NCBI GenBank assembly: GCA_937896305.1
Contig: CALBND010000098.1
Location: 1-37,378 of the forward strand
DNA length: 37,378 nucleotides
Reading direction: 5' to 3'
Source of the DNA: an uncultured Actinomycetes bacterium
GTDB lineage: Bacteria > Actinomycetota > Actinomycetes > S36-B12 > UBA5976
Under the pieces are notes generated by a model, which was not told the origin of the DNA, did no database searches, and was given only the letters and a program-made list of their open reading frames with translations. The position numbers and the translations under genes were made by a program. Below, piece after piece: positions 18,995 to 36,666 of this stretch (position 1 is the first letter of the stretch; the number at the start of each line of letters is the position of its first letter).

Positions 18995-21208
<2,214 letters not shown>

Positions 21209-21783: not shown

Positions 21784-23421
<1,638 letters not shown>

Positions 23422-23437
23422 ATAATTAAAAAATTAA

Positions 23438-23465
23438 GGGCTGTTTCATTAATTTGAAACAGCCC
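23438..23465. terminator. bidirectional terminator between groEL and the CopC-domain gene
   Basis: GGGCTGTTTCA (23438-23448) pairs with TGAAACAGCCC (23455-23465), with A/T runs on both flanks. Confidence 0.75.
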
Positions 23466-23488
23466 ATAATTTATTTTAAATCTCTTTT

Positions 23489-24013
23489 TTATTTTTTACG
23501 CATTTTCAGTAAAAATGTTATCGCAACACCAATTGCTGCCCCTAAAGATAACCATTGCAACCAGTTAATACTTGACTTATTTTCCTCACCTTGCGCACTA
23601 ATTAACATCGGTTGATCATCTTGCGCAGTAATCTCTGGAGCGGATTCAACTACTTCTTCGGTAGCTAATTGAAGGGCGTAAACAACTTGTCCTTCTAGGG
23701 GATGACCATCAGAGGCAACTGTTTTGTAATTAATTATTAGTTCATTGCCTGTGATATCTGAGGCAATTGCTACATAAATATCAGCACCTTCAACTCGTAT
23801 GGTTGTTTCAAGAGAAGTTTCACCATAGGTCAGCGAAGCAAATGTTCCATCAGCAAGTATTTCTTCACCAAAAGTTAATTTAACTTCTGCAGGTAGCAAA
23901 ATTAAGCTTTGCTCGGTCGTAGGTTCGGTTGAGATTAAATCAGTGTGGGCAAGGGCTGGCAAGGCAGAAAAAAGTGAAATAAGAGTTAGCAGAATTACTC
24001 CTATTTTTTTCAT
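23489..24013 (-). CDS. CopC-domain copper-binding protein, secreted with a C-terminal membrane anchor
   Basis: 174 aa. Signal peptide ending ALA|HTD gives a mature N-terminal His. The D-x-H motif in VASDGHPLEG is the Cu(II)-site signature of CopC. Very few Met, so no Met-rich Cu(I) site. C-terminal TM helix followed by KMRKK. The ATG overlaps the TGA of the upstream GntR gene (ATGA). Confidence 0.75.
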   Translation of the reverse strand: MKKIGVILLTLISLFSALPALAHTDLISTEPTTEQSLILLPAEVKLTFGEEILADGTFASLTYGETSLETTIRVEGADIYVAIASDITGNELIINYKTVASDGHPLEGQVVYALQLATEEVVESAPEITAQDDQPMLISAQGEENKSSINWLQWLSLGAAIGVAITFLLKMRKK

Positions 24014-24747
24014 CTGGTTCTTAATATTAAAAATTGGAATCTTCCTTCAATAAAGTATGTCTTGCTGTACATCATGGGGTCACCTTCCCCTGAATAATGT
24101 ACTTGTTCTAGTAAGAGAAACAGATCATTTTTTGGTCTATCTGGACCCCAACCAATTTCTTTAGAGATAACCGCATTTAATTCAGCTAAAGCTCTAATCG
24201 GTCTGGAATTAATTGTGTCTAGTGATGCAAAGACACTGCCTGATTTCATTTGTTCCACTACTGCTTCAGAAAGGGAACTAATACTAATTGTGTCATAGGA
24301 GAAAGCAACTGGTTTTCCATCAGCTAAAACTGCACGCTCTAAATACAAAACCTGTTCAGGAAGATCTAGTTGTAATTTTTCCATTTCTTTCTCGGAAGCA
24401 TTGCGAATTTCAGAAACTTTAAATTCCATTGAAGGCGAATAGCCCATTTCGCGAATAGTTTCAGACATTGATCTAAGTTCATGTAAACCTGTCGGAATCG
24501 CTCTTCCAAAATCGTTTACATAAGTTCCTGAACCATGACGAATATCTAGTAGGCCTTGATATTCCAAAGTTTTTAAGGCAGTTCTAACGGTTACGCGTGA
24601 AACCTTATACTTCTCAGCTAATTCTGCTTCACTATTTATCTTCTCGCCCGGTGCCCATTCCTTGGCCAAAATCCGAGCCCGAATGTCGTCACTTATCTGC
24701 CTGGTCAGCGAGGCTCGACCGCCAAACTGCTCCCCACCAAGGCTCAT
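24010..24747 (-). CDS. GntR family transcriptional regulator, HutC subfamily (wHTH + UTRA effector domain)
   Basis: 245 aa. wHTH SEAELAEKYKVSRVTVRTALKTLEYQGLL and a ~150-aa C-terminal domain of UTRA type. Divergent from the mtnA-like operon. Confidence 0.85.
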   Translation of the reverse strand: MSLGGEQFGGRASLTRQISDDIRARILAKEWAPGEKINSEAELAEKYKVSRVTVRTALKTLEYQGLLDIRHGSGTYVNDFGRAIPTGLHELRSMSETIREMGYSPSMEFKVSEIRNASEKEMEKLQLDLPEQVLYLERAVLADGKPVAFSYDTISISSLSEAVVEQMKSGSVFASLDTINSRPIRALAELNAVISKEIGWGPDRPKNDLFLLLEQVHYSGEGDPMMYSKTYFIEGRFQFLILRTR

Positions 24748-24770
24748 GAGGCGAAGTATTTCTTTTTCAT
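24744..24770 (-). other. candidate 8-codon leader ORF (MKKKYFAS) translationally coupled to the GntR gene
   Basis: On the minus strand, AAGGA-N6-ATG AAA AAG AAA TAC TTC GCC TCA TGA. The TGA overlaps the GntR ATG (ATGA), and the GntR ATG has no Shine-Dalgarno of its own. Confidence 0.25.
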
Positions 24771-24828
24771 AACAAATCCTTAAAGGAAGTTGACAAGAAA
24801 GACGATATCTAAGAGGCTAGAGGCTGAA

Positions 24829-24843
24829 AGTTGTAGGACAACT
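24829..24843 (+). promoter_or_regulatory. operator site 1: perfect 15-bp palindrome AGTTGTAGGACAACT (candidate HutC/GntR box)
   Basis: AGTTGT-AGG-ACAACT sits 25 nt upstream of the likely mtnA-like start and 82 nt from the divergent GntR start. The identical 16-mer (A + 15-mer) recurs at 36274-36289 on the other strand. The GT..AC core is typical of GntR-family operators. Confidence 0.7.
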
Positions 24844-24868
24844 ATTGACTAATCAAAGAGGGGTTTTC

Positions 24869-25900
24869 TTGAAAGAGATTCGAGCGATTTCATGGGTAAA
24901 TGACGGTTTAACTTTGATCGATCAAACAAAGCTGCCGCATCAAGAAATCAATATCGAGATTGAAACGGTTGATCAATTAGTTGACGCGATTTCAACATTG
25001 GCTGTGCGAGGCGCACCAGCATTAGGTGCAGCTGGCGCTTGGGGAATTGTTGTTGCAATGCGACAAGGGGCCAAAGAAAACTGGAGTGCAGAAAAACTTA
25101 ATGCAGAATTTTTAAGAATTAGAAATGCTCGCCCGACAGCTGTTAATTTAGCTTGGGGGGTAGACAAAGTTTTACCAGTGGTTTCATCAGGAGTTGAGGC
25201 AGTACTTGCTGCTGCAAATAAAATTGCTGCAGAAGATGAAGCAGGAAATCGAGCAATGGGAAAATTGGGCGCTGATTGGATTGAGAAAAAAGTTGCCAAC
25301 AGACCAATTAGAGCATTAACACATTGCAACACCGGCTCACTTGCAACAACAACTTGGGGAACTGCGTTGGGAGTTATTAGAGAAATTAATTCTCGAGGAA
25401 TTTTAAAACACGTGTTTGCAGATGAAACAAGACCACTTCTGCAAGGTGGAAGATTGACAGCTTGGGAATTATCACAAGATGGTATCGAACATTTCGTCAT
25501 TGCTGATGGAGCCGCAACAAGTATTATTGCTCGCGGAGAAGTTGATGTTGCATTAATTGGAGCTGATCGAGTTGCAGCAAATGGAGATACTGCAAATAAA
25601 ATTGGATCTTTTGCTGTTGCCTTAGCTTGTAAGTATGCCGGGATTCCTTTTGTTGTTGTTGCACCTGAATCAACTGTAGATATCAGTACCCCAAGTGGAA
25701 AAGAAATAGAAATTGAATTTAGAAGTGAAGATGAAATATTGAGTTTAAATGGACAGAGAATTTCACCGAAACAATCAAAAGGTTTAAATCCTGCATTTGA
25801 CGTTACCCCTGCTGAATTAATTTCTGCACTAGTTACAGAAAAAGGGGTTTATGAAATCTCAAACGGAATTATCCCCGGATCTAGGGCGGTTTTAATTTAA
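24869..25900 (+). CDS. mtnA: MtnA/eIF-2B-like family isomerase (S-methyl-5-thioribose-1-phosphate isomerase family)
   Basis: Catalytic Cys motif THCNTGSLAT and Asp motif GADRVAANGDTANKIGS, plus NPAFDVTPAELI. The ORF track starts at TTG 24845, directly abutting the palindrome. I prefer TTG 24869, which has AAAGAGGGG 5 nt upstream and gives MKEIRAISW... Confidence 0.88.
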   Translation: MKEIRAISWVNDGLTLIDQTKLPHQEINIEIETVDQLVDAISTLAVRGAPALGAAGAWGIVVAMRQGAKENWSAEKLNAEFLRIRNARPTAVNLAWGVDKVLPVVSSGVEAVLAAANKIAAEDEAGNRAMGKLGADWIEKKVANRPIRALTHCNTGSLATTTWGTALGVIREINSRGILKHVFADETRPLLQGGRLTAWELSQDGIEHFVIADGAATSIIARGEVDVALIGADRVAANGDTANKIGSFAVALACKYAGIPFVVVAPESTVDISTPSGKEIEIEFRSEDEILSLNGQRISPKQSKGLNPAFDVTPAELISALVTEKGVYEISNGIIPGSRAVLI

Positions 25901-27891
25901 TGAATACCATTCCAAAACCTCTTCAAGAACTTGTTGAAAGATCACAAGTTTTAGGAAATAATCAAGATTTTGTTGTTTATGGTGGGGGAAATACTTCTGC
26001 CAAAGGTGAAATAAAAGATCATTTCCAAAGAAATAGAAAAGTCTTATGGGTCAAAGGATCTGGTGCAGACATGATGAATGCAACTGCTCCTGATTACCCT
26101 GCCCTCTATCTTGATGAATTACTTCCACTGTTGGATTTCAACGCCATGACTGATGAAGAAATGACGGATTTAGTTGGACGAGCTCTGGTAGATCCAACTA
26201 GTAGAAGGCCTTCCATTGAAACATTGCTACACGCTTTCTTGCCCTTTAAACATATTGACCACGTACATGCTGATGCAATTTGTGCTTTAACAAATCATAA
26301 AGATGGACAAAAGGCAGTACAAGAAGCATTAGGTGATGGATTTGCTTACGTAGATTGGATTAGACCTGGTTTTGAATTAAGTAAAAAATCATCTCTGCTT
26401 GGCGATTATGAAGGAATTATTTTAGCTCATCACGGACTAATCGTTTGGGACGAAGACAGTGATGTTTGTAAAGAAAAGAATTATGAAGTAATTAGAAAAG
26501 TTGAAAAATATCTATCTTCTTTAACAAAGAGACCTGATTCAATTTTTCAACATACTGAATATAGCGATGAAGAATACCAAACATTAATGTTACAAATTCG
26601 TGGTCGCTTAAATAAAAATAGTAAAAAAATTATTGTTAATGACCCACGATTAAAAGAAACATCTACCAGAAAAGATATCCAGGAAATAGTTTCTGCAGGA
26701 GTCTCAAGTGCAGACCATATGCTGAGAATCAAACCTTGGTCTGCTGTTATTGAAAACCCTAAAGAACCAAATAGTGTTAATAATTCAATTGATAAATACG
26801 CAAAAAATTATGAGAGATACTTTGAAGAAAATAAAAACTTATTGACTCCAGGTTATTCAATGCACGATACAGATCCAAGAGTTGTAATTGTTCCTGGAAT
26901 TGGCGCAATCACTTCAGGTTTAAACACAAATGAATGCAAAATGTATTCCGATATTGCATTTCATACTCACAAAACAGCCGCAATGGCAAAAGATGCATTT
27001 AATAATGTAGAAGGTTTACCAAACTCCGAAATATTTGGTTTTGATTATTGGCCAATGGAACTTTACAAATTGGCTAGCAAACCTGCCCCTAAGAAATTCG
27101 CTGGGAGTATATTTATCGTGACCGGTGCAGGTAGTGGTATTGGGAGAGGAATTGCTCTTGATCTAGCAGAAAAAGGAGCAACTCTAGTCTTGGCAGATCT
27201 AGACGAAAAGGGTCTCAGGGATGTTGAGGCTTTGTTTAAGGAATCTAAATTTAATCGACCACTGATTGTCAGTGGGGATCAATCAGATGAAAAAGTTGTT
27301 AGTCAAACAGTTGCTGAAACAATTAATAATTTTGGTGGATTTGATGGAGTCGTTTTCAGTGCCGGAATTGCAGTCACGGATTCACTCAAAGATTTAACTC
27401 TTGCTAAGTGGAATAAAGGATTAGCCGTGAACCTAACCAGTTCTTTCTTGATGACAAAGGCTGCTCTAAGCGCGTTACGAACACAAAACTCAGGTGGGTC
27501 TTTGGTTTACATTGCAAGCAAGAACGCATTTGCCCCGGGAGCTGGATTTGGTGGCTATTCAGTAAGTAAAGCTGGAATGTTGCAATTGATGAGAATTGCC
27601 GCCCTCGAAGGTGGCGCAGAAAAAATTAGAGCAAATGCAATTAATCCAGATGCAATTTTTGATAACAGCAAACTCTGGGAAGGAGGAATCAGAGAGGAAC
27701 GCGCTAAAGCTCACGGTGTTAAACCAGAAGCATTGGAAGATTTTTATGCACAAAGAAATATTTTAAAATCACATGTTACTTCCAAAGATGTCGCCGAAAC
27801 CACAGCATTTTTACTTTCTGATGAATCTGCCAGAACCACAGGCTCGGTCATTGCCGTCGACGGCGGAGTGGCTGCTGCGTTTCCGCGCTAA
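25900..27891 (+). CDS. bifunctional class II aldolase/adducin-domain + short-chain dehydrogenase fusion (YuxG/RhaEW-like)
   Basis: 663 aa. The N-terminal ~400 aa carry a metal motif HIDHVHAD and ILAHHGLIVWDED. The C-terminal SDR has TGAGSGIGRG and YSVSK. TAATG overlap with the preceding isomerase gene. Confidence 0.85.
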   Translation: MNTIPKPLQELVERSQVLGNNQDFVVYGGGNTSAKGEIKDHFQRNRKVLWVKGSGADMMNATAPDYPALYLDELLPLLDFNAMTDEEMTDLVGRALVDPTSRRPSIETLLHAFLPFKHIDHVHADAICALTNHKDGQKAVQEALGDGFAYVDWIRPGFELSKKSSLLGDYEGIILAHHGLIVWDEDSDVCKEKNYEVIRKVEKYLSSLTKRPDSIFQHTEYSDEEYQTLMLQIRGRLNKNSKKIIVNDPRLKETSTRKDIQEIVSAGVSSADHMLRIKPWSAVIENPKEPNSVNNSIDKYAKNYERYFEENKNLLTPGYSMHDTDPRVVIVPGIGAITSGLNTNECKMYSDIAFHTHKTAAMAKDAFNNVEGLPNSEIFGFDYWPMELYKLASKPAPKKFAGSIFIVTGAGSGIGRGIALDLAEKGATLVLADLDEKGLRDVEALFKESKFNRPLIVSGDQSDEKVVSQTVAETINNFGGFDGVVFSAGIAVTDSLKDLTLAKWNKGLAVNLTSSFLMTKAALSALRTQNSGGSLVYIASKNAFAPGAGFGGYSVSKAGMLQLMRIAALEGGAEKIRANAINPDAIFDNSKLWEGGIREERAKAHGVKPEALEDFYAQRNILKSHVTSKDVAETTAFLLSDESARTTGSVIAVDGGVAAAFPR

Positions 27892-27907
27892 ACGGAAATG
27901 AGTAAGG

Positions 27908-27933
27908 ACAAGTGAATTAAAGAATTCACTTGT
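27908..27933 (+). promoter_or_regulatory. perfect 11-bp inverted repeat immediately upstream of the binding-protein gene RBS
   Basis: ACAAGTGAATT-AAAG-AATTCACTTGT with no T-run after it. It lies in the 59-nt spacer between the aldolase-SDR stop and the SBP ATG. It could be an mRNA stem-loop or an internal operator. Confidence 0.45.
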
Positions 27934-27950
27934 AACAAGAGGGAGACAGA

Positions 27951-29051
27951 ATGAGAAGAAGTAAAAACACAGCATTAGCTGGAATTTCAGTTGTTGCTGC
28001 ATTACTTCTCGCTGCATGTTCACAAGGTGGTAGCGATACCACTGCACCTGCAGCAGATGAAGGCACTGTTACTGATACAACTGCTGCTAAACCAGCGCCA
28101 TTTGACGCAGGATTAGTAAAGATTGCAATTGTACAAAACAGTGGAGCTGGAGATTATTTCCAACAATGGACAAACGGTGCTAAGCAACAAGCTGAAGCTA
28201 TCGGTTTTGACGTGCAAATTTATGACGCACAAGCTGATAACGCTAAGCAAGCAACTGACATGGAAACAGCAATTGGTTCTGGCGTAGCTGGCATCATTGT
28301 TGATCACGGTCAAAAAGACACCATGTGTCCATTGATCAAACAAGCAACTGATGCAGGTATTCCAGTAGTTGTTTACGACGTTGCTATTAGTGACTGCGCA
28401 CCGGATGCAGTACAAACACAACAAAGTGATGCATCTCTTGCCCAAGCAGTACTAGAGCAAATGGCAAAAGATCTTGGTAAAGATCAAAAAGTTGGATACG
28501 TAAACGTATTAGGTATCGCACCTTTGGATCGTCGTCACGTTGTATGGGAAGAAATTGTTAAAGCTAACAATTGGACCCAATCATTCTTCGTTGGTAAATT
28601 CACCAACGCAGTTGCAACTGACAATGCTCAATTAGTTGACGCAGCTCTAAAAGCTAATCCAGACGTAACAGGCATTTTTGCTCCTTACGATGAATTAACT
28701 AAGGGAACTGTTTCAGCAATTGAACAAAACAACCTTCAAGGTTCAATCAAGGCATACGGAATTGATATTTCAAATGCTGACATTGAAATCATGACCAAAG
28801 AAGGAAGCCCATGGGCAGCAACAGCAGGTACTGATCCAAACGCGATTGGTGCAGCAGTTGTTAGAAACATGGCTCTTGAACTAGCAGGCCAATTGGGTGT
28901 TAAATCAGTTGACTTCCCAGGTGTTCTTATCACTGCAGCTTTCCTAAAGGAAAATGCAATCAAGAACATGGTTGACTTGCGTGCAGCATTGCCATCATTG
29001 AACTTAGCCGAAGTTAGCGCTGCTGACTGGATTCCAGCAGTTAAGTTCTAA
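27951..29051 (+). CDS. sugar ABC transporter substrate-binding lipoprotein (RbsB/periplasmic binding protein type I family)
   Basis: 366 aa. Signal peptide with lipobox LLAAC, a Thr/Ala-rich linker, then an alternating alpha/beta type I PBP pattern (IAIVQNS...GIIVDHG...). Confidence 0.85.
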   Translation: MRRSKNTALAGISVVAALLLAACSQGGSDTTAPAADEGTVTDTTAAKPAPFDAGLVKIAIVQNSGAGDYFQQWTNGAKQQAEAIGFDVQIYDAQADNAKQATDMETAIGSGVAGIIVDHGQKDTMCPLIKQATDAGIPVVVYDVAISDCAPDAVQTQQSDASLAQAVLEQMAKDLGKDQKVGYVNVLGIAPLDRRHVVWEEIVKANNWTQSFFVGKFTNAVATDNAQLVDAALKANPDVTGIFAPYDELTKGTVSAIEQNNLQGSIKAYGIDISNADIEIMTKEGSPWAATAGTDPNAIGAAVVRNMALELAGQLGVKSVDFPGVLITAAFLKENAIKNMVDLRAALPSLNLAEVSAADWIPAVKF

Positions 29052-29081
29052 GTAACAAAAAGTAAAAGAAAAGGTGAGTTA

Positions 29082-30587
29082 ATGGTTGCAGCAGTGGAAG
29101 TTAGAAATATTTCCATGGCGTTTGGGTCAAACCAAGTGTTAAGTGGAGTAGATCTAATTATTGACAAAGGTCAAACAACCGCATTGTTAGGTGCTAATGG
29201 TGCGGGGAAATCCACTTTGATAAAAGTTTTATCCGGTGTTTATTCTTCCTTTACCGGAGAAATAATTATCGATGGTAAATCTGCAACTATTGACTCACCA
29301 ATTACTGCCAGAGCTTCTGGCATCGAAACAGTTCATCAAAGAATTGATGAAGGAGTAATCCCTGGTTTAACAGTTGCTGAAAATTTACTATTTGAACGAA
29401 TTGTCACAGGAGATGTGCCTAATCGCGTTTCACTAAAAACAATTGTTGAGAAAGCTGTAGAAATTGCAGCAGCACTAGATTTAAATTGGAATAAATCAAA
29501 GCTTAGAAGTGATGTTTACGAATTGGGAATAGCTGAACAGCAATTATTGATATTAGCCAGAGCACTTTCTCGCTCTCCCAAACTACTTATTTTAGATGAA
29601 CCAACATCAGCCCTTTCTGCATCAGAAAGTCAGAATTTATTTAAAGTTGTGAAAAATTTGCAAGATAAAGGTATTGCCATTCTCTATGTCTCACATAAAT
29701 TAAGTGAATTAGATCAAATTGCTAACAATCTAGTTGTGATTCGCGATGGGAAAATTAGAAATGAACAAAAAACACCTTTTAGTTGGGATCAGGCGCTGAA
29801 AGAAATGTTAGGCCAACAAATAGTTGGCCAAAGACAAGAAATTTCATCATTAGCAAGTGGCAAGGTTGCTTTGGAGCTAAAAGGAGTCAAACTTTTACCA
29901 GAAAGTGAGCCCATTAATTTATCTTTAAGAAAAAATGAAGTAACTGGTGTAATTGGTCTATTGGGTGCTGGAAAAACAGAATTAGCAAAAATTATTTATG
30001 GTGCTGAAAAAATTCTTGAAGGCGAAATGTTATTTGAAAATAAGAAATACCAACCATCTCATCCTGCAGAAGCCGTGGCAAAAGATATCTATCTAGTTCC
30101 TGAGGATCGAGCAGCAGAATCGATGATTCCTGCTTGGAGCATTTCTGAAACTGCAACTTTGCCTTTTATGGGCAATTTTTCAGCACGGGGAATTATTAAA
30201 AAAGCAGCAGAATTTATTCGAGGAAAACAACTGGTGGAAGATTTGAAAGTTATAACTACTTCGCATTTAGCTCAAGTTGATTCCTTATCGGGTGGTAATC
30301 AACAAAAAGTGGTTGTGGGTAGATGGCTACAATCCACACCTAAAATAATGATTTTGGACGAACCATTTCGAGGAGTCGATATTGGGGCTCGAAGGGATAT
30401 TTCAAAACGAGTTAGGGATTTAGCTGCAACAGATGTTGCAGTTTTAGTTTTAGCATCTGATGTTGATGAAATATTGGATGTCGCAGATCGGATAATTGTT
30501 CTAGTTGAGGGGAAGATAGTGATGGACGAAATATCAAGTAAGACTTCCAAAGAATTAATTGTCAACAAAATGTCGGAGGTGGCATAA
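29082..30587 (+). CDS. sugar ABC transporter ATP-binding protein (tandem ABC domains, RbsA-like)
   Basis: 501 aa. Walker A GANGAGKST and GLLGAGKTE, signature LSGGNQQKV in the second domain, Walker B ILDEP twice. Confidence 0.9.
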   Translation: MVAAVEVRNISMAFGSNQVLSGVDLIIDKGQTTALLGANGAGKSTLIKVLSGVYSSFTGEIIIDGKSATIDSPITARASGIETVHQRIDEGVIPGLTVAENLLFERIVTGDVPNRVSLKTIVEKAVEIAAALDLNWNKSKLRSDVYELGIAEQQLLILARALSRSPKLLILDEPTSALSASESQNLFKVVKNLQDKGIAILYVSHKLSELDQIANNLVVIRDGKIRNEQKTPFSWDQALKEMLGQQIVGQRQEISSLASGKVALELKGVKLLPESEPINLSLRKNEVTGVIGLLGAGKTELAKIIYGAEKILEGEMLFENKKYQPSHPAEAVAKDIYLVPEDRAAESMIPAWSISETATLPFMGNFSARGIIKKAAEFIRGKQLVEDLKVITTSHLAQVDSLSGGNQQKVVVGRWLQSTPKIMILDEPFRGVDIGARRDISKRVRDLAATDVAVLVLASDVDEILDVADRIIVLVEGKIVMDEISSKTSKELIVNKMSEVA

Positions 30588-31616
30588 ATGAGTACCGCAA
30601 AACTAAGTAACTTAGCCAATTATGATTTAAGGCAATTCACAGTTAAATATGGATTCATTGTTGTAACTGTGGTGCTCTTCTTATGGTTTGCTTTAACTGA
30701 ACCTTCATTTAGAATGGAATCAACATTGTTTTCAATGTTGAAATTTACTTCTGTAGTAGCCATCACTGGTCTTGGAGTAACTATGACAATGGTGGTCGGC
30801 GGACTTGATCTTTCTGTTGGATCGATTGCAGGGTTATCTGTAACACTTTCTGCGATGACTATGGTTATTTATGCTCAAACTGGTGCAGTTGCTTTAATAG
30901 TTGTTTTATTAGGTGGAGCGTTAGTCGGATTGTTTAATGCCTTCTTAATTGTGGTACTAAAAATTCCTGATCTCTTAGCAACCTTGGCTACAATGTTTAC
31001 AATCATGGGATTGAAACTTGTTCCAGTAGATGGACAGTCTGTTTCTTCAGGATTAATTTTACGAGATGGCAGTGTTGCTCCAGGAAAATTTACTCCAGGA
31101 TTTTTATTAATTGACCGAGCCTACATAGGGCCTGTTCCACTTCCTGTCGCCATATTTTTTGGATTAGCTTTTTTCGTTTGGTTTTTCTTGACCAGAACTA
31201 GATGGGGCAGAGTTATGTATGCAATTGGTTCAAATCCAGAAGCTGCCAGGCTTGCAGGGGTAAGAGTAAAAAGATATCGTGCTTTGGCCTACATTATGTC
31301 TGGTGTATTTGCTTCAATTGGTGGATTGATTTTGTCTTCTCGTATTGGTCAAGGAGACATCAGTGCCGGAAACTCACTTCTGCTAGACGCTGTGGCAGTT
31401 TCTTTAGTCGGAACTTCTGTATTAGGTATGGCAAGACCAAATGCTTGGGGAACAATATTAGGAGCAGTTTTAATTGGTATTGTGATCACTGGCTTAACTA
31501 TTAAAGGATTTCCTTATTACGCCCAAGATGTCGTGAAGGGCTTAGTCTTATTGACAGCTTTGATTTTCTCCTTTACTTTATCGAGGAGAAAAACTAAATT
31601 CGTACCTGCAGTTTAG
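30588..31616 (+). CDS. ABC transporter permease (RbsC/branched-chain sugar permease family)
   Basis: 342 aa, about 9-10 hydrophobic helices, GGLDLSVGS motif typical of RbsC-type permeases. Its start immediately follows the ATPase stop. Confidence 0.88.
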   Translation: MSTAKLSNLANYDLRQFTVKYGFIVVTVVLFLWFALTEPSFRMESTLFSMLKFTSVVAITGLGVTMTMVVGGLDLSVGSIAGLSVTLSAMTMVIYAQTGAVALIVVLLGGALVGLFNAFLIVVLKIPDLLATLATMFTIMGLKLVPVDGQSVSSGLILRDGSVAPGKFTPGFLLIDRAYIGPVPLPVAIFFGLAFFVWFFLTRTRWGRVMYAIGSNPEAARLAGVRVKRYRALAYIMSGVFASIGGLILSSRIGQGDISAGNSLLLDAVAVSLVGTSVLGMARPNAWGTILGAVLIGIVITGLTIKGFPYYAQDVVKGLVLLTALIFSFTLSRRKTKFVPAV

Positions 31617-31629
31617 AAAAGGAGATAAT

Positions 31630-32856
31630 GTGGCTGAAGAATATGAATTTTTATCAAAAGATAATATTTCAAGTTATTTATCAAGCAAAGCGGTCTTTTC
31701 TAAATTAATTGATTCGCAAAACATTGTTGTATTCAAAGAAGTTGGGGACGGTAATTTAAATCTCGTTTTTATTATGAAAGACAATAAAGGAAAAGGAATT
31801 GTCTTAAAGCAAGCACTTCCTTATGTACGACTTGTGGGACCAGATTGGCCCATGACACCAACCAGGGCTCGCATAGAAGCTGAAACAACAATTGCGCATT
31901 CAAAGTATGCAAAAGATTTAGTTCCAGAAATTTATGATTACGATGAATCTCGTTACATTATTGCGATGGAAGACTTATCTGATCATGTTGTTTGGCGAGG
32001 AGCGCTAAATGAAGGATTTCAATTTGAAGGTGTAGCTGGACCACTTGGAACCTATGTTGCAAAAACTGGTTTTGGAACTTCAGTTTTTACACTAGGACAA
32101 GAAACTCACAAACTAGAATTGGCTCGAGCAATTAATCCAGGATTATGTTTAATCACAGAAGATCTAGTATTCTCTGAACCATATTTTGAAAATGGAAGAA
32201 ATTCATTTCTTCCAGCAAATGAAATTGATGCAAAAGAATTGGCAAATGATTCAGATATGGTTAGAGAAATTGGAATATTGAAATATAAATTCATGACAAC
32301 TTCTGAAAGCTTAATTCATGGAGATTTACACACAGGTTCAGTAATGATTAAAGCTGAAGATAAACAATCAGCTATCAGCATTAAAGCAATCGATTCTGAA
32401 TTTGCTTTCTATGGTCCACTGGCCTTTGATCTAGGTGCTCTAATGGCAAATTATGTGATTGCAGCTGCGAGATTTTGCGCACTTGGCAAGATAGAACAGA
32501 TGCAATGGGCACTTGGACTGCCTGAACAAACCTGGGTTGCTTTTGAAAAGGAAATTCGAGCCCTTTGGCCAACTCGGGTTGATAAACGCGTATTTAACGA
32601 TGAGTTTTTGGAAGTTTTGTTGAAAACTTGGCGGGAAGACGCTTTGGGATTTACTGGTGCAAAAATGGCCAGAAGAATTGTTGGACTAGCTAAAACAACC
32701 GATATTGAAACCTTGGAACCAAATCTTCGTGAAGGTGCTGCTCGTGGGGTGCTACGAGCCGCTCGCATGATTACTAAAACCAGAAAACAAGTTAAAACTT
32801 GGGCGGACATTGCTAATGAAACAAAAGCAATTTTAACTTCAGCGGCAACAAAATAA
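31630..32856 (+). CDS. mtnK: MtnK family kinase (S-methyl-5-thioribose kinase family)
   Basis: 408 aa, GTG start after AAGGAG. EVGDGNLNLVF, KQALPYVRLVGPDWPMTPTRARIEAE and HGDLHTGSV are close matches to the Bacillus MtnK signature motifs. Confidence 0.88.
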   Translation: MAEEYEFLSKDNISSYLSSKAVFSKLIDSQNIVVFKEVGDGNLNLVFIMKDNKGKGIVLKQALPYVRLVGPDWPMTPTRARIEAETTIAHSKYAKDLVPEIYDYDESRYIIAMEDLSDHVVWRGALNEGFQFEGVAGPLGTYVAKTGFGTSVFTLGQETHKLELARAINPGLCLITEDLVFSEPYFENGRNSFLPANEIDAKELANDSDMVREIGILKYKFMTTSESLIHGDLHTGSVMIKAEDKQSAISIKAIDSEFAFYGPLAFDLGALMANYVIAAARFCALGKIEQMQWALGLPEQTWVAFEKEIRALWPTRVDKRVFNDEFLEVLLKTWREDALGFTGAKMARRIVGLAKTTDIETLEPNLREGAARGVLRAARMITKTRKQVKTWADIANETKAILTSAATK

Positions 32857-32865
32857 GGAGAAATT

Positions 32866-33225
32866 ATGAAAACACCTCGTGAAATAGCAGAATCATATTG
32901 GAAAGCAGAATGCGCTAGAGACACTGCAGCTGTTTTAAGCCACTATCATCAGGATGCAGTTTTTTGTCCACCTGGACAAGAGTTAAAAGGTCACGAACAA
33001 ATTGCTACGTTTTATGATGCTTCAGGTGAATCATTTCCTGGACTAAAAGTTGAAATATTGCATGAAGTCAGAAATGGTGATGAAAGTTGTCTTGAATGGT
33101 ATGCAACATTGACTGATAAAAATGGGAATGTATTTAATATTCCGGGAGTAAATGTAATTAAGATTAGAGATGAAAAATTTGAATCTGTTCACGCATACTT
33201 TGATCCGACTGTATTAAACGCTTAA
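32866..33225 (+). CDS. SnoaL-like / NTF2-fold small protein of unknown function
   Basis: 119 aa with strong AAGGAG Shine-Dalgarno. The N-terminal helix plus ...YHQDAVF..P... pattern and size match the SnoaL/ketosteroid-isomerase-like cone fold. It is the last gene of the plus-strand operon. Confidence 0.6.
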   Translation: MKTPREIAESYWKAECARDTAAVLSHYHQDAVFCPPGQELKGHEQIATFYDASGESFPGLKVEILHEVRNGDESCLEWYATLTDKNGNVFNIPGVNVIKIRDEKFESVHAYFDPTVLNA

Positions 33226-34325
33226 CCTTCTATTTTATCTACAATATTTCTTAGACTTTTAGCATTCTCAAGTAAGTTACCTCGGTGTAGCGCTCCACCG
33301 ATTAAAAACACGGTGTCATTGCCAAAGAAGTTAATTATTTCTGAAATTCTTTCAATCGTCATCCCACCACCAGGACTTGGCCAAATTGTTTTAATTTCAC
33401 CTAGTTGACTTCTACATGTATCAGCTATCTTTGTGCATTCATCTTTTGAAAAACTAAACCTGCCACCATAATTTGGAAACACAGAAATATCTGCTCCAGC
33501 TAAACGCATTAATGTGGCTAGAACAATTTCATGATTTATTCCATGATTTTTGCTCATAAAATGTGATCCAAGCATTGAAGGGTGACTCATGATTGGTAGA
33601 GCAATTTCATCGTTATCTGCAATTGCTCTCATAGTGTCAAAACCTGAAACTCCCGGTAGCACCATTAATGCACCACTACCTAACTGTGCTGCTCTGATTG
33701 CAGAATCAATAATTTGATCTGCAGGAAGATTGACACTGGGAGCGTAAACAGATTTAGTGCCAAATTTTTCATTAGCTTCATTAACGGCACTAGCAATAAT
33801 TTTGACGCGATCTTCCCAAAGCGCCCAAGGCTGATTGGCCAAACTGTGATCATCTTTTATTAGGTCGATCCCTGCTTCAACCATCACCACAGCTATTTGA
33901 GCCATTTCTTTTGCACTCAACCCCATTGGTTTTAAGGCAGTTGCCAATATGGGGCGATTTTTAATCCCAAAGTATTCACGTAAACCACTTATCCCAAATC
34001 TTGGTCCTTTAAATACAGCTAGTTGATCTTGTTCAAGCTCTATGTCAACTACTCGCACATCCGGAAACATCGAAACATTGCCCCATAAAACATTTAAGAG
34101 CTGGGGAAGTTCATTTCCGGTTATACCTACGTTGTAATCAATTTCTAAAAGAGAGCGATTGTTTGCTAGTGAATTTAAGTTAACGACTTGACCCACAACT
34201 TCATTTTGAATCCAAGTTGGAGCTAATTCAATGGGAAATTCTATTGTTTGTTCAACTCTGATGGCTTCAGCAACTTCTTTGGCAGAATCAGTATTTAATT
34301 CATAACTTATTCTAAAAGTACTCAT
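33222..34325 (-). CDS. RuBisCO-like protein (form IV RLP), short divergent type
   Basis: 367 aa. By-eye alignment to the RuBisCO large subunit: LKPMGLSAKE vs IKPKLGLSAKN, IDLIKDDHSLANQPW vs LDFTKDDENVNSQPF, IMSHPSM vs HIHRAMH, PSPGGGM vs VASGGIH, LIGGALH vs FGGGTLGH, and N-domain GNV retained. Confidence 0.85.
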   Translation of the reverse strand: MSTFRISYELNTDSAKEVAEAIRVEQTIEFPIELAPTWIQNEVVGQVVNLNSLANNRSLLEIDYNVGITGNELPQLLNVLWGNVSMFPDVRVVDIELEQDQLAVFKGPRFGISGLREYFGIKNRPILATALKPMGLSAKEMAQIAVVMVEAGIDLIKDDHSLANQPWALWEDRVKIIASAVNEANEKFGTKSVYAPSVNLPADQIIDSAIRAAQLGSGALMVLPGVSGFDTMRAIADNDEIALPIMSHPSMLGSHFMSKNHGINHEIVLATLMRLAGADISVFPNYGGRFSFSKDECTKIADTCRSQLGEIKTIWPSPGGGMTIERISEIINFFGNDTVFLIGGALHRGNLLENAKSLRNIVDKIEG

Positions 34326-34330
34326 AACTA

Positions 34331-35344
34331 TTACAGAGCTTCTGCTTTAGCGGTGCTATGTACGTCGATGACTCTGGTTTGTGATAACTCTTCTTCAGAT
34401 ATTTTAAGATCTTTATCCATTAATTTTTCTGTTGCTTCAATTAAACTTCTGGCACCCAATCCATATTTTTGTAACAAGTATTTTTGAGATGCACCATGTG
34501 CGTAAGTATCTTTAAGTCCAATTTTTATGAGTTTCTTGCCAATGCCATGTTCAGCCATTAAATCAGCTACAGCACTACCCAGTCCACCTATTACGCTGTG
34601 ATTTTCCATGGAAATAATTCCATGTTTAGCTGATTTTAAACTTTCAATAACTTGCGGATCGTCGAATGGCTTTAATGTTGAAATATGTAAATGCTGCACA
34701 GAAACACCATGTTCTTGCAAGGCAGGTATGGCACGCAGTGCTTCTTCTGTAGAAATACCAGAACTGATTACAGTTACATCGAAACCATTACTCAAAACTC
34801 TTGCTTGGTTAAATTGCATGGCTTCTGCTTTAGGAAAAATACGAGAAACTTCACCGCGCAGCATTCTTATGTAAACTGGGCCATCAATTTTGTGGGCTAC
34901 ATCTAATACCGATTCGACTTCGGTAGCGTCTCCGGTTTCCAAAATTGTCATGTTTGGAACGCCTCTTAAAGCATTAATGTCATCTATTGCTTGATGAGTA
35001 ACTCCTCCTGGGGTGGTGATTCCTGGCAAAAAGCCCACAAATCGAACTGGAAGATTTGGGTAAGCCACTGATAAATGAAGTTGATCAAATGGTCGACGGT
35101 AAAGAAATACAGCAAAAGTGTGCAGCCATGGTTCAAAACCTTCTCGAGCTAATCCAGCTGCAAAGGAAACCATATTTTGTTCAGCCATACCCATTGAGAT
35201 GTATCTCTCTGGGTAAATATCACGCCATTTACCAACTTCACATGAATTAGTTAAATCAGCTGTGACTACCAAAACTTTTGGTTTATCTTTGCTCCAATTA
35301 ATAAAGTTTTCAACATGTGGTCTATTTACAATTTCGTATCCCAT
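34331..35344 (-). CDS. transketolase family protein, C-terminal (pyrimidine-binding + C-terminal domain) subunit
   Basis: 337 aa. Catalytic-Glu region ISMGMAEQNMVSFAAGLA, then HTFAVF. Its ATG abuts the TAA of the N-terminal subunit gene (TAAATG). Confidence 0.88.
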   Translation of the reverse strand: MGYEIVNRPHVENFINWSKDKPKVLVVTADLTNSCEVGKWRDIYPERYISMGMAEQNMVSFAAGLAREGFEPWLHTFAVFLYRRPFDQLHLSVAYPNLPVRFVGFLPGITTPGGVTHQAIDDINALRGVPNMTILETGDATEVESVLDVAHKIDGPVYIRMLRGEVSRIFPKAEAMQFNQARVLSNGFDVTVISSGISTEEALRAIPALQEHGVSVQHLHISTLKPFDDPQVIESLKSAKHGIISMENHSVIGGLGSAVADLMAEHGIGKKLIKIGLKDTYAHGASQKYLLQKYGLGARSLIEATEKLMDKDLKISEEELSQTRVIDVHSTAKAEAL

Positions 35345-36247
35345 TTAAACCCAAGCCTCCAAAAATTCTTTGTACTTTTCCCGCTCAGCTGGACTTGAAA
35401 AACGTACATAATGCAAAGTTGGTGCTCGCTCTTGCAAGATTGGAATATCTCTTATGGGATCGGTGTAGCAAAGAATTATCTTTGGCTTATCTGTTTTTGC
35501 AGTTCCAGCAGCAAAAATTTCATCAATACTATTTCCATCTACAACCGATACGTCCCAACCAAAACTTTCAACTCTTTGTTTAAGTGGTTCAATAGACATA
35601 ACGCTTTCCATCGGCCCATCACATTGGTTTTTATTGACATCAACAATAACTTTTAGATTGTCTAATTTGTGATAACTAGAAGCAGCTAAGGCTTCCCAAG
35701 TTTGACCTTCTTGGAATTCTCCATCAGACATGAAAACCCAAACATTTCCAGTTTCTTTTTTAAATTTGCGAGCCATGGCAACTCCGCTTGCTTGGGAAAG
35801 TGCTTGAGCGAGTGAACCTGTGGTGGTTTCAAATCCAGGGGAGTGCTCAGCACCTATCATTTCAACAGTTGATCCATCTTTATTAAATTTTTCTAAAGAA
35901 CTCTCACTTAATCTTTTTGTTTCAATCAAAGCTGCATAAATGACTAGGGCATAATGAGCAGGGCTCATGAAAATTCGATCTAACTCTGGACCCTGCCGGC
36001 CGTGAAATTCTGCACCCGTGACATAACTTTTAAAAGTTTCACTAGGTACCCCCAAGAACGGTCTTGGATCTAAAGGCTTTTCCAGTGGTGTGATTTTTGC
36101 TAAACCACCATAAAGGCTGGCCAAAATTTCAGCAGCCGAACAAGCTTGGCTTAAATAACCACCGTTATTTAAAACAGTGTGTTCTAATACTCGACGTCTT
36201 ATGCCGTGGGCAATGGCCTCTACTTCGGCTTTGTTCTCAATTGTCAT
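35345..36247 (-). CDS. transketolase, N-terminal (thiamine diphosphate-binding) subunit
   Basis: 300 aa. GGYLSQACSAAEILASLY, SPAHYA, and a ThDP motif variant SDGEFQEGQTWEA...VDVNKN. Confidence 0.88.
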   Translation of the reverse strand: MTIENKAEVEAIAHGIRRRVLEHTVLNNGGYLSQACSAAEILASLYGGLAKITPLEKPLDPRPFLGVPSETFKSYVTGAEFHGRQGPELDRIFMSPAHYALVIYAALIETKRLSESSLEKFNKDGSTVEMIGAEHSPGFETTTGSLAQALSQASGVAMARKFKKETGNVWVFMSDGEFQEGQTWEALAASSYHKLDNLKVIVDVNKNQCDGPMESVMSIEPLKQRVESFGWDVSVVDGNSIDEIFAAGTAKTDKPKIILCYTDPIRDIPILQERAPTLHYVRFSSPAEREKYKEFLEAWV

Positions 36248-36273
36248 TATGTCTTGAATATAGCAAAGAGAGC

Positions 36274-36288
36274 AGTTGTCCTACAACT
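36274..36288 (-). promoter_or_regulatory. operator site 2: the same palindrome (reads AGTTGTAGGACAACT on the minus strand) upstream of the transketolase-RLP operon
   Basis: The plus strand reads AGTTGTCCTACAACT, 27-41 nt upstream of the transketolase ATG (36247). A TATATT -10-like hexamer (minus strand, 36262-36257) lies 11 nt downstream of it, and no Shine-Dalgarno is visible. Confidence 0.7.
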
Positions 36289-36302
36289 TCTGTCCAGCAT
36301 TA

Positions 36303-36336
36303 AAAAGTCCCCTTTATTTGCATAAAGGGGACTTTT
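36303..36336. terminator. intrinsic (bidirectional-looking) terminator after the whiB-like gene
   Basis: AAAAGTCCCCTTTAT (36303-36317) pairs perfectly with ATAAAGGGGACTTTT (36322-36336), loop TTGC, with an A-run before and a T-run after. It separates whiB from the transketolase promoter region. Confidence 0.85.
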
Positions 36337-36366
36337 CTTTTGGAGGGTCATTCAAAAAGACTATAT

Positions 36367-36666
36367 TTATCCAGCTATTGGCATTGGTGCTTTAACTGGG
36401 GCATAGATGGTTTCGCGATCATCTTCACTCATCGCACCCCACACCCCATAAGGTTCACGAACCGCTAGGGCATGTTCAGCACATTGACGAAGAACTGGGC
36501 AGGTGGCACAAATTGACTTGGCCAATGCGATCCTGTTCTCGCGGGCTGGGCCACGCTCACCTTCGGGATGAAAGAAAATCTCAGGATCTTCCCCACGGCA
36601 AGCACCTTTCAACTGCCAGTCCCAAATATCAGCATTTGGACCGGGCAATCTTGAGATATCAGCCAT
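36367..36666 (-). CDS. whiB: WhiB family [4Fe-4S] transcription factor (WhiB3/WhiD-like)
   Basis: 99 aa. LPGPNADIWDWQLKGACRG...FFHPEGERG...CATCPVLRQCAEHAL...PYGVWGA. Four Cys in the WhiB pattern, and an N-terminus very close to the mycobacterial WhiB3 pattern LPGPNADIWNWQ. Confidence 0.92.
   Translation of the reverse strand: MADISRLPGPNADIWDWQLKGACRGEDPEIFFHPEGERGPARENRIALAKSICATCPVLRQCAEHALAVREPYGVWGAMSEDDRETIYAPVKAPMPIAG

Follow-up and report, generated by a model that had tools for sequence, protein, structure and literature searches.

A candidate dihydroxyacetone-phosphate shunt aldolase fused to a dehydrogenase and encoded next to mtnA in the acI lineage

The fusion gene and its link to MtnA

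We analyzed a 37,378-nucleotide stretch of DNA from an uncultured Actinomycetes bacterium (contig CALBND010000098.1; hereafter the window), which encodes a protein combining a class II aldolase domain with a short-chain dehydrogenase/reductase (SDR). The gene for this fusion protein directly follows a gene for an MtnA-type isomerase. The genome of the window has 1.26 Mb, 38% G+C and an estimated completeness of 94.95%, and its relatives carry the names Nanopelagicales/Nanopelagicaceae (acI lineage), which are among the most abundant freshwater bacteria. The two genes and the three domains of the fusion are:

24845..25900, plus strand: MtnA-type aldose-1-phosphate to ketose-1-phosphate isomerase (for 5-methylthioribose-1-phosphate or 5-deoxyribose-1-phosphate); 413.5 bits on TIGR00512, cut-off 279
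25900..27891, plus strand: aldolase-SDR fusion gene, 663 aa, ATG start (from the list of open reading frames, ORFs)
25900..26529, plus strand: N-terminal class II (metal-dependent) aldolase domain, residues 1-210 (fold search and motifs)
26542..27093, plus strand: middle domain, residues about 215-398, specific to the fusion family and well folded in the AlphaFold model
27094..27891, plus strand: C-terminal classical SDR domain, residues about 399-663 plus the stop codon (Pfam, Foldseek)

An initial annotation, made from the letters of the window, had assigned the upstream gene to the MtnA family and reported that its stop codon overlaps the fusion start by one nucleotide (TAATG). Both statements hold. 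The upstream product passes the equivalog cut-off of TIGR00512, and according to the ORF coordinates base 25900 is shared by the MtnA stop (TAA, 25898-25900) and the ATG of the fusion. This 1-nt overlap suggests that the two genes are co-translated.

The pairing is conserved across the order. In 54 of the 57 related Nanopelagicales loci with enough upstream DNA, the gene next upstream of the fusion is an MtnA gene that has the same orientation and abuts or overlaps it. Of the 28 genomes with an orthologue in a 201-genome sample of the order, 27 also have MtnA; in the remaining one the gene sits at a contig end. On a metagenome contig, a homologue with 47% identity is located between MtnA and MtnK.

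We found that the fusion consists of an aldolase domain, a conserved middle domain and an SDR, as judged from Pfam, from full-length alignment to the PRK08324 and TIGR02632 models and from an AlphaFold model (mean predicted local distance difference test score of 93.7 for the full length and 93.0 for residues 1-398 alone). The initial annotation had described a class II aldolase domain of about 400 aa followed by an SDR. The aldolase and the SDR are indeed present, but the aldolase fold covers only residues ~1-210, and residues ~215-395 form a separate domain. Pfam places Aldolase_II at residues 9-199 and adh_short/adh_short_C2 at residues 405-657.

The aldolase domain matched 3m4r, the N-domain of a Thermoplasma homologue, with a VIA Z score of 31, followed by FucA (21), RhaD (18.7) and APIP/MtnB (17.3). 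It contains the motifs GGGNTS (28-33), E107, H111, H121-x-H123 and H178, and with its fold, His-His-His metal triad, catalytic Glu and phosphate-binding GxN(T/S) loop it belongs to the class II aldolase/adducin superfamily. A structure search with residues 1-398 gave no fold match above Z 4.5 for the middle domain, which has no Pfam model either; its residues R234, D272-H273, Y304, Y383-W384, E387 and K390 are conserved in the whole fusion family. The C-terminal domain is a classical SDR with the cofactor motif TGAGSGIG (408-415), an acidic residue (D433) at the end of beta-2, and S540 and Y553-x3-K557 as the Ser-Tyr-Lys residues. Foldseek aligned it with TM scores of ~0.9 to levodione reductase, 3-hydroxybutyrate dehydrogenase and butanediol dehydrogenase, and whole-protein matches were mostly SDRs. 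The fusion keeps every residue that shows little or no variation among 66 family members: G29-G30-N31-x-S33, E107, H111, H121, H123 and H178 in the aldolase domain, G409, D433, Y553 and K557 in the SDR, and the motifs of the middle domain. An acidic residue at the end of beta-2 is a sign of NAD use in SDRs, and D433 predicts a preference for NAD rather than NADP.

Relation to RhaEW and to other aldolases of the MtnA product

The closest described architecture is that of RhaEW/YuxG, a bifunctional enzyme that serves both as L-rhamnulose-1-phosphate aldolase and as L-lactaldehyde dehydrogenase and is represented by Caur_2283 of Chloroflexus aurantiacus and YuxG of B. subtilis (Rodionova et al. 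2013, PMC3870299). The three-part architecture and the catalytic motifs are common to the whole family, and both kinds of protein probably cleave a deoxy-ketose-1-phosphate to dihydroxyacetone phosphate (DHAP) and convert the aldehyde without releasing it. The role of the middle domain in RhaEW-type enzymes has apparently never been addressed. Unlike RhaEW, the fusion lies beside MtnA and not beside rha genes at the loci examined, is only ~33% identical to the RhaEW-type paralogues of the order, and has an expected substrate of opposite C4 configuration.

We then compared the fusion with the family at the level of profiles and phylogeny. It scored below every NCBIfam equivalog cut-off, with 567 bits against 1014 for the best model (NF006190), 523.6 against 567.75 for TIGR02632, 490.5 against 634 for NF006189 and 383 against 1152 for NF006188. 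In a maximum-likelihood tree of 138 family members the MtnA-linked proteins formed a separate clade (SH-aLRT 99) of 19 rows, which takes in two representatives at 61% and 47% identity beside the window protein and every MtnA-linked protein, and the RhaEW-type paralogues fell far away in another part of the tree. The 201-genome sample contains two kinds of homologue, orthologues with 49-79% identity and paralogues with ~33%, and two genomes (G128 and G064) hold both an orthologue and a 33%-identical RhaEW-type paralogue. The G128 paralogue, the one of these two whose context was scanned, reached 984 bits on TIGR02632 and 1242 on another family model and adjoins genes for a DeoR regulator, a rhamnulokinase-like kinase and LldD, a context that matches described actinobacterial RhaEW loci (PMC3870299). 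Homologues also occurred in 13 of 400 other Actinomycetota genomes, with best matches of 34-37% identity, and at 11 such loci checked there was no MtnA within 1.5 kb.

The MtnA-linked clade has its own substitutions flanking active-site motifs, namely V122, C128, S270, A271, M274 and D382. S270, A271 and M274 flank D272-H273, and D382 stands beside Y383; these changes would fit an altered substrate pocket. Judged from these comparisons, the fusion is a member of the RhaEW architecture family but an MtnA-linked paralogue, not a RhaEW orthologue. Further aldolase-SDR subfamilies lie in contexts related neither to rhamnose nor to MtnA (L107 with P0134, L109/L110 with P0127, and L106 with P0126). 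The distant members P0123, P0126, P0127, P0134 and P0174 sit on short contigs or have unrelated neighbours, among them glycerol-3-phosphate dehydrogenase / FGGY kinase / DeoC, a peptide permease and a beta-eliminating lyase, and the aldolase-SDR family probably holds further substrate specificities.

Profile scans of the window agreed with the initial annotation that no rhaA, rhaB or rhaM-type genes are nearby. The annotation had also asked whether a rhamnose isomerase and kinase are encoded elsewhere in the genome, and none was found there. Neither RhaA (PF06134) nor RhaM (PF05336) had a match in the genome; the sole match to RhaI (TIGR02635) scored 34 bits against a cut-off of 531, lies beside a xylulokinase gene and is probably xylose isomerase; and there was no rhamnulokinase, the two FGGY kinases of the genome both being XylB-like. 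Together with the linkage at 54 of 57 loci, the separate clade and the missed cut-offs, this bears out the earlier idea that the fusion was recruited next to an MtnA-family isomerase instead of rhamnose genes.

We next considered which enzymes act on the MtnA product in relatives without the fusion. Each of the five sampled genomes that have MtnA and lack the fusion encodes an unfused class II aldolase with a length of ~210-260 aa. The best models for these proteins are L-fuculose-phosphate aldolase and ribulose-1-phosphate aldolase, with the haloarchaeal ribulose-1-phosphate aldolase model NF053831 ranking best or second best (141-179 bits, cut-off 300), and the MtnB model gave 63-95 bits against a cut-off of 137. 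In three of the five (G088, G156 and G197) the aldolase gene directly follows MtnA. The operon of G156 continues with a purine nucleoside phosphorylase (PNP)-family phosphorylase and an amidohydrolase (deaminase), with overlapping stops and starts, and thus has the layout of a classical DHAP shunt. Because FucA-like aldolases hold the slot after MtnA in relatives lacking the fusion, the fusion takes the place of Ald2, known from R. rubrum and E. coli ATCC 25922, and of its B. thuringiensis counterpart DrdA, which act as 5-methylthioribulose-1-phosphate / 5-deoxyribulose-1-phosphate aldolases in known DHAP shunts. This is a clear non-orthologous displacement of the Ald2-type aldolase within one order.

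The predicted reaction, the position after MtnA and the fold are shared with Ald2/DrdA, and the DrdA structures 6btd and 6btg were among the Foldseek matches of the N-terminal part. The context is that of a DHAP shunt as well, with the fusion in operons with MtnA and with MtnK or a phosphorylase. In contrast to the fusion, Ald2 and DrdA are stand-alone FucA-like proteins of ~210 aa. The N-domain of the fusion is 13-20% identical to FucA-like/DrdA structures, falls in the RhaE branch and not in the FucA-like branch, and is followed by two extra domains. None of the FucA, Ald2 and ribulose-1-phosphate aldolase models was among its matches at E <= 1.

MtnB, the 5-methylthioribulose-1-phosphate dehydratase, likewise acts on the MtnA product and has the class II aldolase fold. 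The fusion N-domain scored 13.6 bits on the MtnB model TIGR03328 (cut-off 137) and 188-215 bits on fusion-family models. In one genome of the order (G108:C30:99500-109500, locus L135) the cluster encodes MtnA, the fusion, MtnC (225 bits), MtnB (155 bits), acireductone dioxygenase (ARD/MtnD), cytidine deaminase, a methylthioinosine/methylthioadenosine phosphorylase (MTIP/MTAP)-type phosphorylase and a TRZ/ATZ deaminase. MtnB and MtnC both score above their cut-offs there, and the locus shows the canonical methionine salvage pathway beside the fusion branch. MtnB-like and ARD genes also lie near the fusion in four more genomes (G176, G084, G152 and G182); these are candidates, the scan with the MtnB model having covered the G108 cluster. 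Since the fusion stands in one cluster with MtnB, a role as a further dehydratase is unlikely, and it is better read as a branch that removes 5-deoxyribulose-1-phosphate, which the methionine pathway cannot use productively, a logic that parallels the Drd pathway (Beaudoin 2018, PMC6079011). The initial annotation had kept a dehydratase role open; with the coexistence of MtnB in relatives and the low profile score, and with no ARD found in the genome of the window, such a role now appears unlikely. There is precedent for fusing the MtnB fold to the next pathway enzyme in Tetrahymena MtnBD and Arabidopsis DEP1 (PMC6302742, PMC6079011), where the fused partner is a dioxygenase or a phosphatase and not an SDR.

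Predicted reaction and alternative explanations

The pair of MtnA and the fusion is surrounded by the following genes:

24010..24747, minus strand: GntR/HutC (UTRA) regulator, divergent (Pfam GntR and UTRA); beside MtnA in 14 related loci
27951..31616, plus strand: ribose-type sugar ATP-binding cassette (ABC) importer with binding protein (27951-29051), ATPase (29082-30587) and permease (30588-31616) (Pfam, NCBIfam)
31630..32856, plus strand: MtnK-type 5-methylthioribose / 5-deoxyribose kinase; 378.4 bits on TIGR01767, cut-off 275
32866..33225, plus strand: SnoaL-like (NTF2-fold) protein (Pfam SnoaL_2), travelling with the ABC importer and MtnK insert
33222-34325, minus strand: RuBisCO-like protein (RLP), in a convergent operon at 33222..36247 (NCBIfam, Pfam)
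34331-35344 (C half) and 35345-36247 (N half), minus strand: split transketolase, in the same convergent operon (NCBIfam, Pfam)

The plus-strand operon therefore runs in the order MtnA, fusion, ABC importer, MtnK and SnoaL-like protein. The importer is a variable insert, present at seven of 74 related loci and every time together with MtnK; the similarity of its binding protein to ribose, rhizopine and rhamnose binders is weak and unspecific. MtnK occurs in ten of the 201 genomes, eight of which carry the fusion, and it also follows the fusion at L103, L104 and L039. The RLP and transketolase genes are frequent neighbours and directly follow the fusion on the same strand at L025, L026, L029 and L059; the best NCBIfam match of the RLP is the MtnW enolase model, at 222 bits under a cut-off of 409. 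Four of the five genomes that have only MtnA and the fusion at the locus contain no RLP anywhere. Because the RLP is missing there and the importer and MtnK are variable, we regard the pair of MtnA and the fusion as the core unit.

Apart from that of the fusion, the genome of the window has no class II aldolase domain. On another contig of this genome (C141; L012:177-2226, minus strand) a gene for an MTIP/MTAP-type phosphorylase (260.7 bits on NF006599, cut-off 223) adjoins one for a TRZ/ATZ deaminase. The deaminase resembles 5'-deoxyadenosine/methylthioadenosine deaminases. The pair suggests a Pseudomonas-like route in which deamination precedes phosphorolysis, so that MtnA would be supplied with no need for a nucleosidase. 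The genome further encodes an ordinary purine nucleoside phosphorylase, next to a phosphomutase, and these would serve ribose-1-phosphate. Spermidine synthase (TIGR00417) was not found in 13 genomes of the genus of the window, so that most of the internal supply probably comes from 5'-deoxyadenosine made by radical S-adenosylmethionine (SAM) enzymes, with acetaldehyde as the likely predominant aldehyde. The main endogenous substrate of the fusion would then probably be 5-deoxyribulose-1-phosphate. Without spermidine synthase, endogenous methylthioadenosine should be small, and the RLP/transketolase branch is perhaps there for imported methylthioribose.

Among bacterial routes for disposing of 5'-deoxyadenosine and methylthioadenosine, the DHAP shunt is the most widespread. 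We think it rather probable that the fusion is a DHAP-shunt aldolase for 5'-deoxynucleoside by-products of SAM, joined to an enzyme that disposes of the released aldehyde. In an internal route, the TRZ/ATZ deaminase and the MTIP/MTAP-type phosphorylase would turn 5'-deoxyadenosine or 5'-methylthioadenosine into 5-deoxyribose-1-phosphate or 5-methylthioribose-1-phosphate; in an external route, the ABC importer and MtnK would make the same sugar phosphates from free 5-deoxyribose or methylthioribose. MtnA would convert them to the ketose-1-phosphate, which the aldolase domain (His121, His123, His178 and Glu107) would cleave to DHAP and acetaldehyde or 2-(methylthio)acetaldehyde. The NAD-type SDR, by analogy with RhaW, would use NAD+ to oxidize the aldehyde, giving acetate or 2-(methylthio)acetate, although reduction to the alcohol is possible. 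The acetate could be activated by AcsA, which is encoded in the genome (979 bits). The comparisons establish the architecture, the conserved catalytic residues, the synteny, the paralogy to RhaEW and the displacement of Ald2-type aldolases, and from them we infer the substrates, products and cofactor direction. Both aldehydes are possible, the 5-deoxy (acetaldehyde) route being favoured for endogenous flux. E. coli uses exogenous sugars of this kind through the DHAP shunt and a permease (PMC12632272). The proposal of the initial annotation that a single fused protein could carry out both steps of the shunt gains support from comparative genomics, through the linkage to MtnA, the Ald2 slot and the intact active sites.

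Several points weigh against this assignment. The evidence on the clade is comparative; SDRs rarely oxidize aldehydes; a second consumer of the same ketose-1-phosphate, the RLP with the split transketolase, adjoins the operon; and at 95% completeness the absences in the genome are not absolute. L-rhamnulose-1-phosphate is (3R,4S), whereas 5-deoxy- and 5-methylthio-D-ribulose-1-phosphate are (3R,4R) (PMC6079011); as the configurations at C4 differ, a RhaE-type pocket must change its stereopreference. RhaEW is NAD+-dependent, yields DHAP and lactate and is inactive with NADH, and it gave no DHAP without NAD+ (PMC3870299), so that the chemistry of the family may not be a simple aldolase reaction followed by a dehydrogenase reaction.

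This behaviour of RhaEW raises an alternative in which oxidation comes first: the SDR would oxidize a hydroxyl of the ketose-1-phosphate (e.g. C4-OH) with NAD+ and the aldolase domain would hydrolyse the resulting beta-diketone, giving DHAP and an acid with no free aldehyde. Without NAD+ RhaEW formed neither DHAP nor lactate, and its product is lactate, not lactaldehyde; the authors nevertheless read the enzyme as an aldolase with an aldehyde dehydrogenase (PMC3870299). The nearest SDR structures are enzymes of secondary alcohols and ketones, and the conserved D272-H273 pair of the middle domain has no assigned role, both of which would suit this order of events. The class II aldolase fold is known for aldolases, epimerases, dehydratases and decarboxylases, but to our knowledge for no beta-diketone hydrolase, and we consider this inferred mechanism improbable. 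We are similarly sceptical of the possibility that the shunt serves another sugar 1-phosphate, either D-ribulose-1-phosphate, made by the MtnA-type isomerase from nucleoside-derived ribose-1-phosphate and cleaved to DHAP and glycolaldehyde with glycolate as the end product, or another imported pentose. The aldolases that replace the fusion in relatives rank high on NF053831, though below its cut-off, the unspecific binding protein leaves room for such a sugar, and MtnA and MtnK are promiscuous, with ribose metabolism by these enzymes in B. subtilis (cited in PMC6302742). Against this stand the isomerase and the kinase themselves, which pass the MtnA and methylthioribose kinase equivalog cut-offs, the phosphorylase, deaminase, MtnB, MtnC and MtnD of the cluster in a relative, which tie it to SAM by-products, and the purine nucleoside phosphorylase and phosphomutase that would handle ribose-1-phosphate.

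A third view, that the N-domain is an MtnB-like dehydratase which passes a diketone to the RLP acting as enolase, as in the methionine salvage of Bacillus, with the SDR reducing an intermediate, seems very unlikely to us. The fold shared with MtnB (Z 17.3 to APIP), the MtnW model as best match of the nearby RLP and the lack of another MtnB candidate in the genome of the window speak for it. It is at odds with the score of the N-domain on TIGR03328, with the RLP scoring under the MtnW cut-off and missing from four of the five MtnA-fusion genomes, with the lack of an ARD in the genome of the window, and with the FucA-like aldolases, not MtnB, that hold the slot of the fusion in relatives. In addition, in the five genomes where the fusion is accompanied by another stand-alone class II aldolase gene and by ARD/MtnD (G108, G176, G084, G182 and G152), a second dehydratase would be redundant. 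We give almost no credence to a genuine RhaEW that cleaves L-rhamnulose-1-phosphate and stands beside MtnA by coincidence. Such an enzyme would have the same three-part architecture, homologues bear the JGI name 'rhamnulose-1-phosphate aldolase/alcohol dehydrogenase', and the TIGR02632 score is close below its cut-off, but rhamnose isomerase of either type, rhamnulokinase and RhaM were not found in the genome, the linkage to MtnA recurs throughout the order, and the fusion belongs to a separate clade, with two genomes holding both types.

The preferred reading of a DHAP-shunt aldolase fused to an aldehyde-disposing enzyme can be taken further, though only tentatively. In acI, one NAD+-coupled enzyme of three domains might run an 'oxidative DHAP shunt' from 5-deoxyribulose-1-phosphate (or 5-methylthioribulose-1-phosphate) to DHAP and acetate (or methylthioacetate), in which the toxic aldehyde is never released. 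The streamlined cells whose operon includes importer and MtnK might then feed on 5-deoxyribose or methylthioribose leaked by other plankton, and the family might be a general machine for cleaving deoxy-ketose-1-phosphates with several substrate-specific subfamilies, possibly with NAD+-obligate cleavage.

The pathway itself is known; what would be new is a DHAP shunt in which a RhaE-type aldolase-SDR fusion stands in for the FucA-type aldolase. No such fusion appears in a review of methionine salvage (PMC6302742) or in Beaudoin 2018 (PMC6079011). A full-text literature search for the fusion or any SDR tied to methylthioribulose/5-deoxyribulose metabolism, acI, or the RLP with transketolase returned nothing relevant; many subscription papers lie outside such a search, which is not proof that the system is undescribed. 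Known DHAP shunts have a separate aldehyde-handling enzyme, which is still to be identified in model organisms (PMC13474568), and the SDR domain is a candidate for this missing enzyme that is physically fused to the aldolase. For enzyme evolution, the fusion would represent a branch of class II aldolases other than FucA recruited to a (3R,4R) substrate, with displacement within one order. Hundreds of acI protein clusters are named 'rhamnulose-1-phosphate aldolase/alcohol dehydrogenase' or 'rhamnose utilization protein RhaD' (JGI names), and metabolic reconstructions that deduce rhamnose use in acI from such names are probably wrong. The operons that include importer and kinase suggest cross-feeding in lakes on deoxy-sugars that derive from SAM.

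Transcript data and other features of the window

Short metatranscriptome contigs from two runs (X9 and X12; >=99% identity) fall on the genes for MtnA, the fusion, the binding protein and the permease within 23400-36400. Contigs of run X9 with at least 99% identity cover 25897-26087 and 27414-27683, and run X12 contributed one contig on MtnA; both runs belong to the study that also produced the DNA runs containing the window. DNA carry-over is possible. No metatranscriptome contig bridged the MtnA/fusion junction by at least 31 nt, and the RLP/transketolase part had no cover. At most, these contigs are a weak hint that the fusion is expressed, and they speak neither for co-transcription nor for silence of the genes.

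A SnoaL-like gene accompanies every insert of ABC importer and MtnK (L014, L016, L017, L029 and L076). As pure speculation, its product could be a sugar anomerase or mutarotase analogue; a fucose-mutarotase homologue is present in one published Drd cluster. Finally, the window encodes a full-length catalase-peroxidase KatG (TIGR00198, 1189 bits) at 19049-21208 on the plus strand, upstream of groEL, in this small acI genome.

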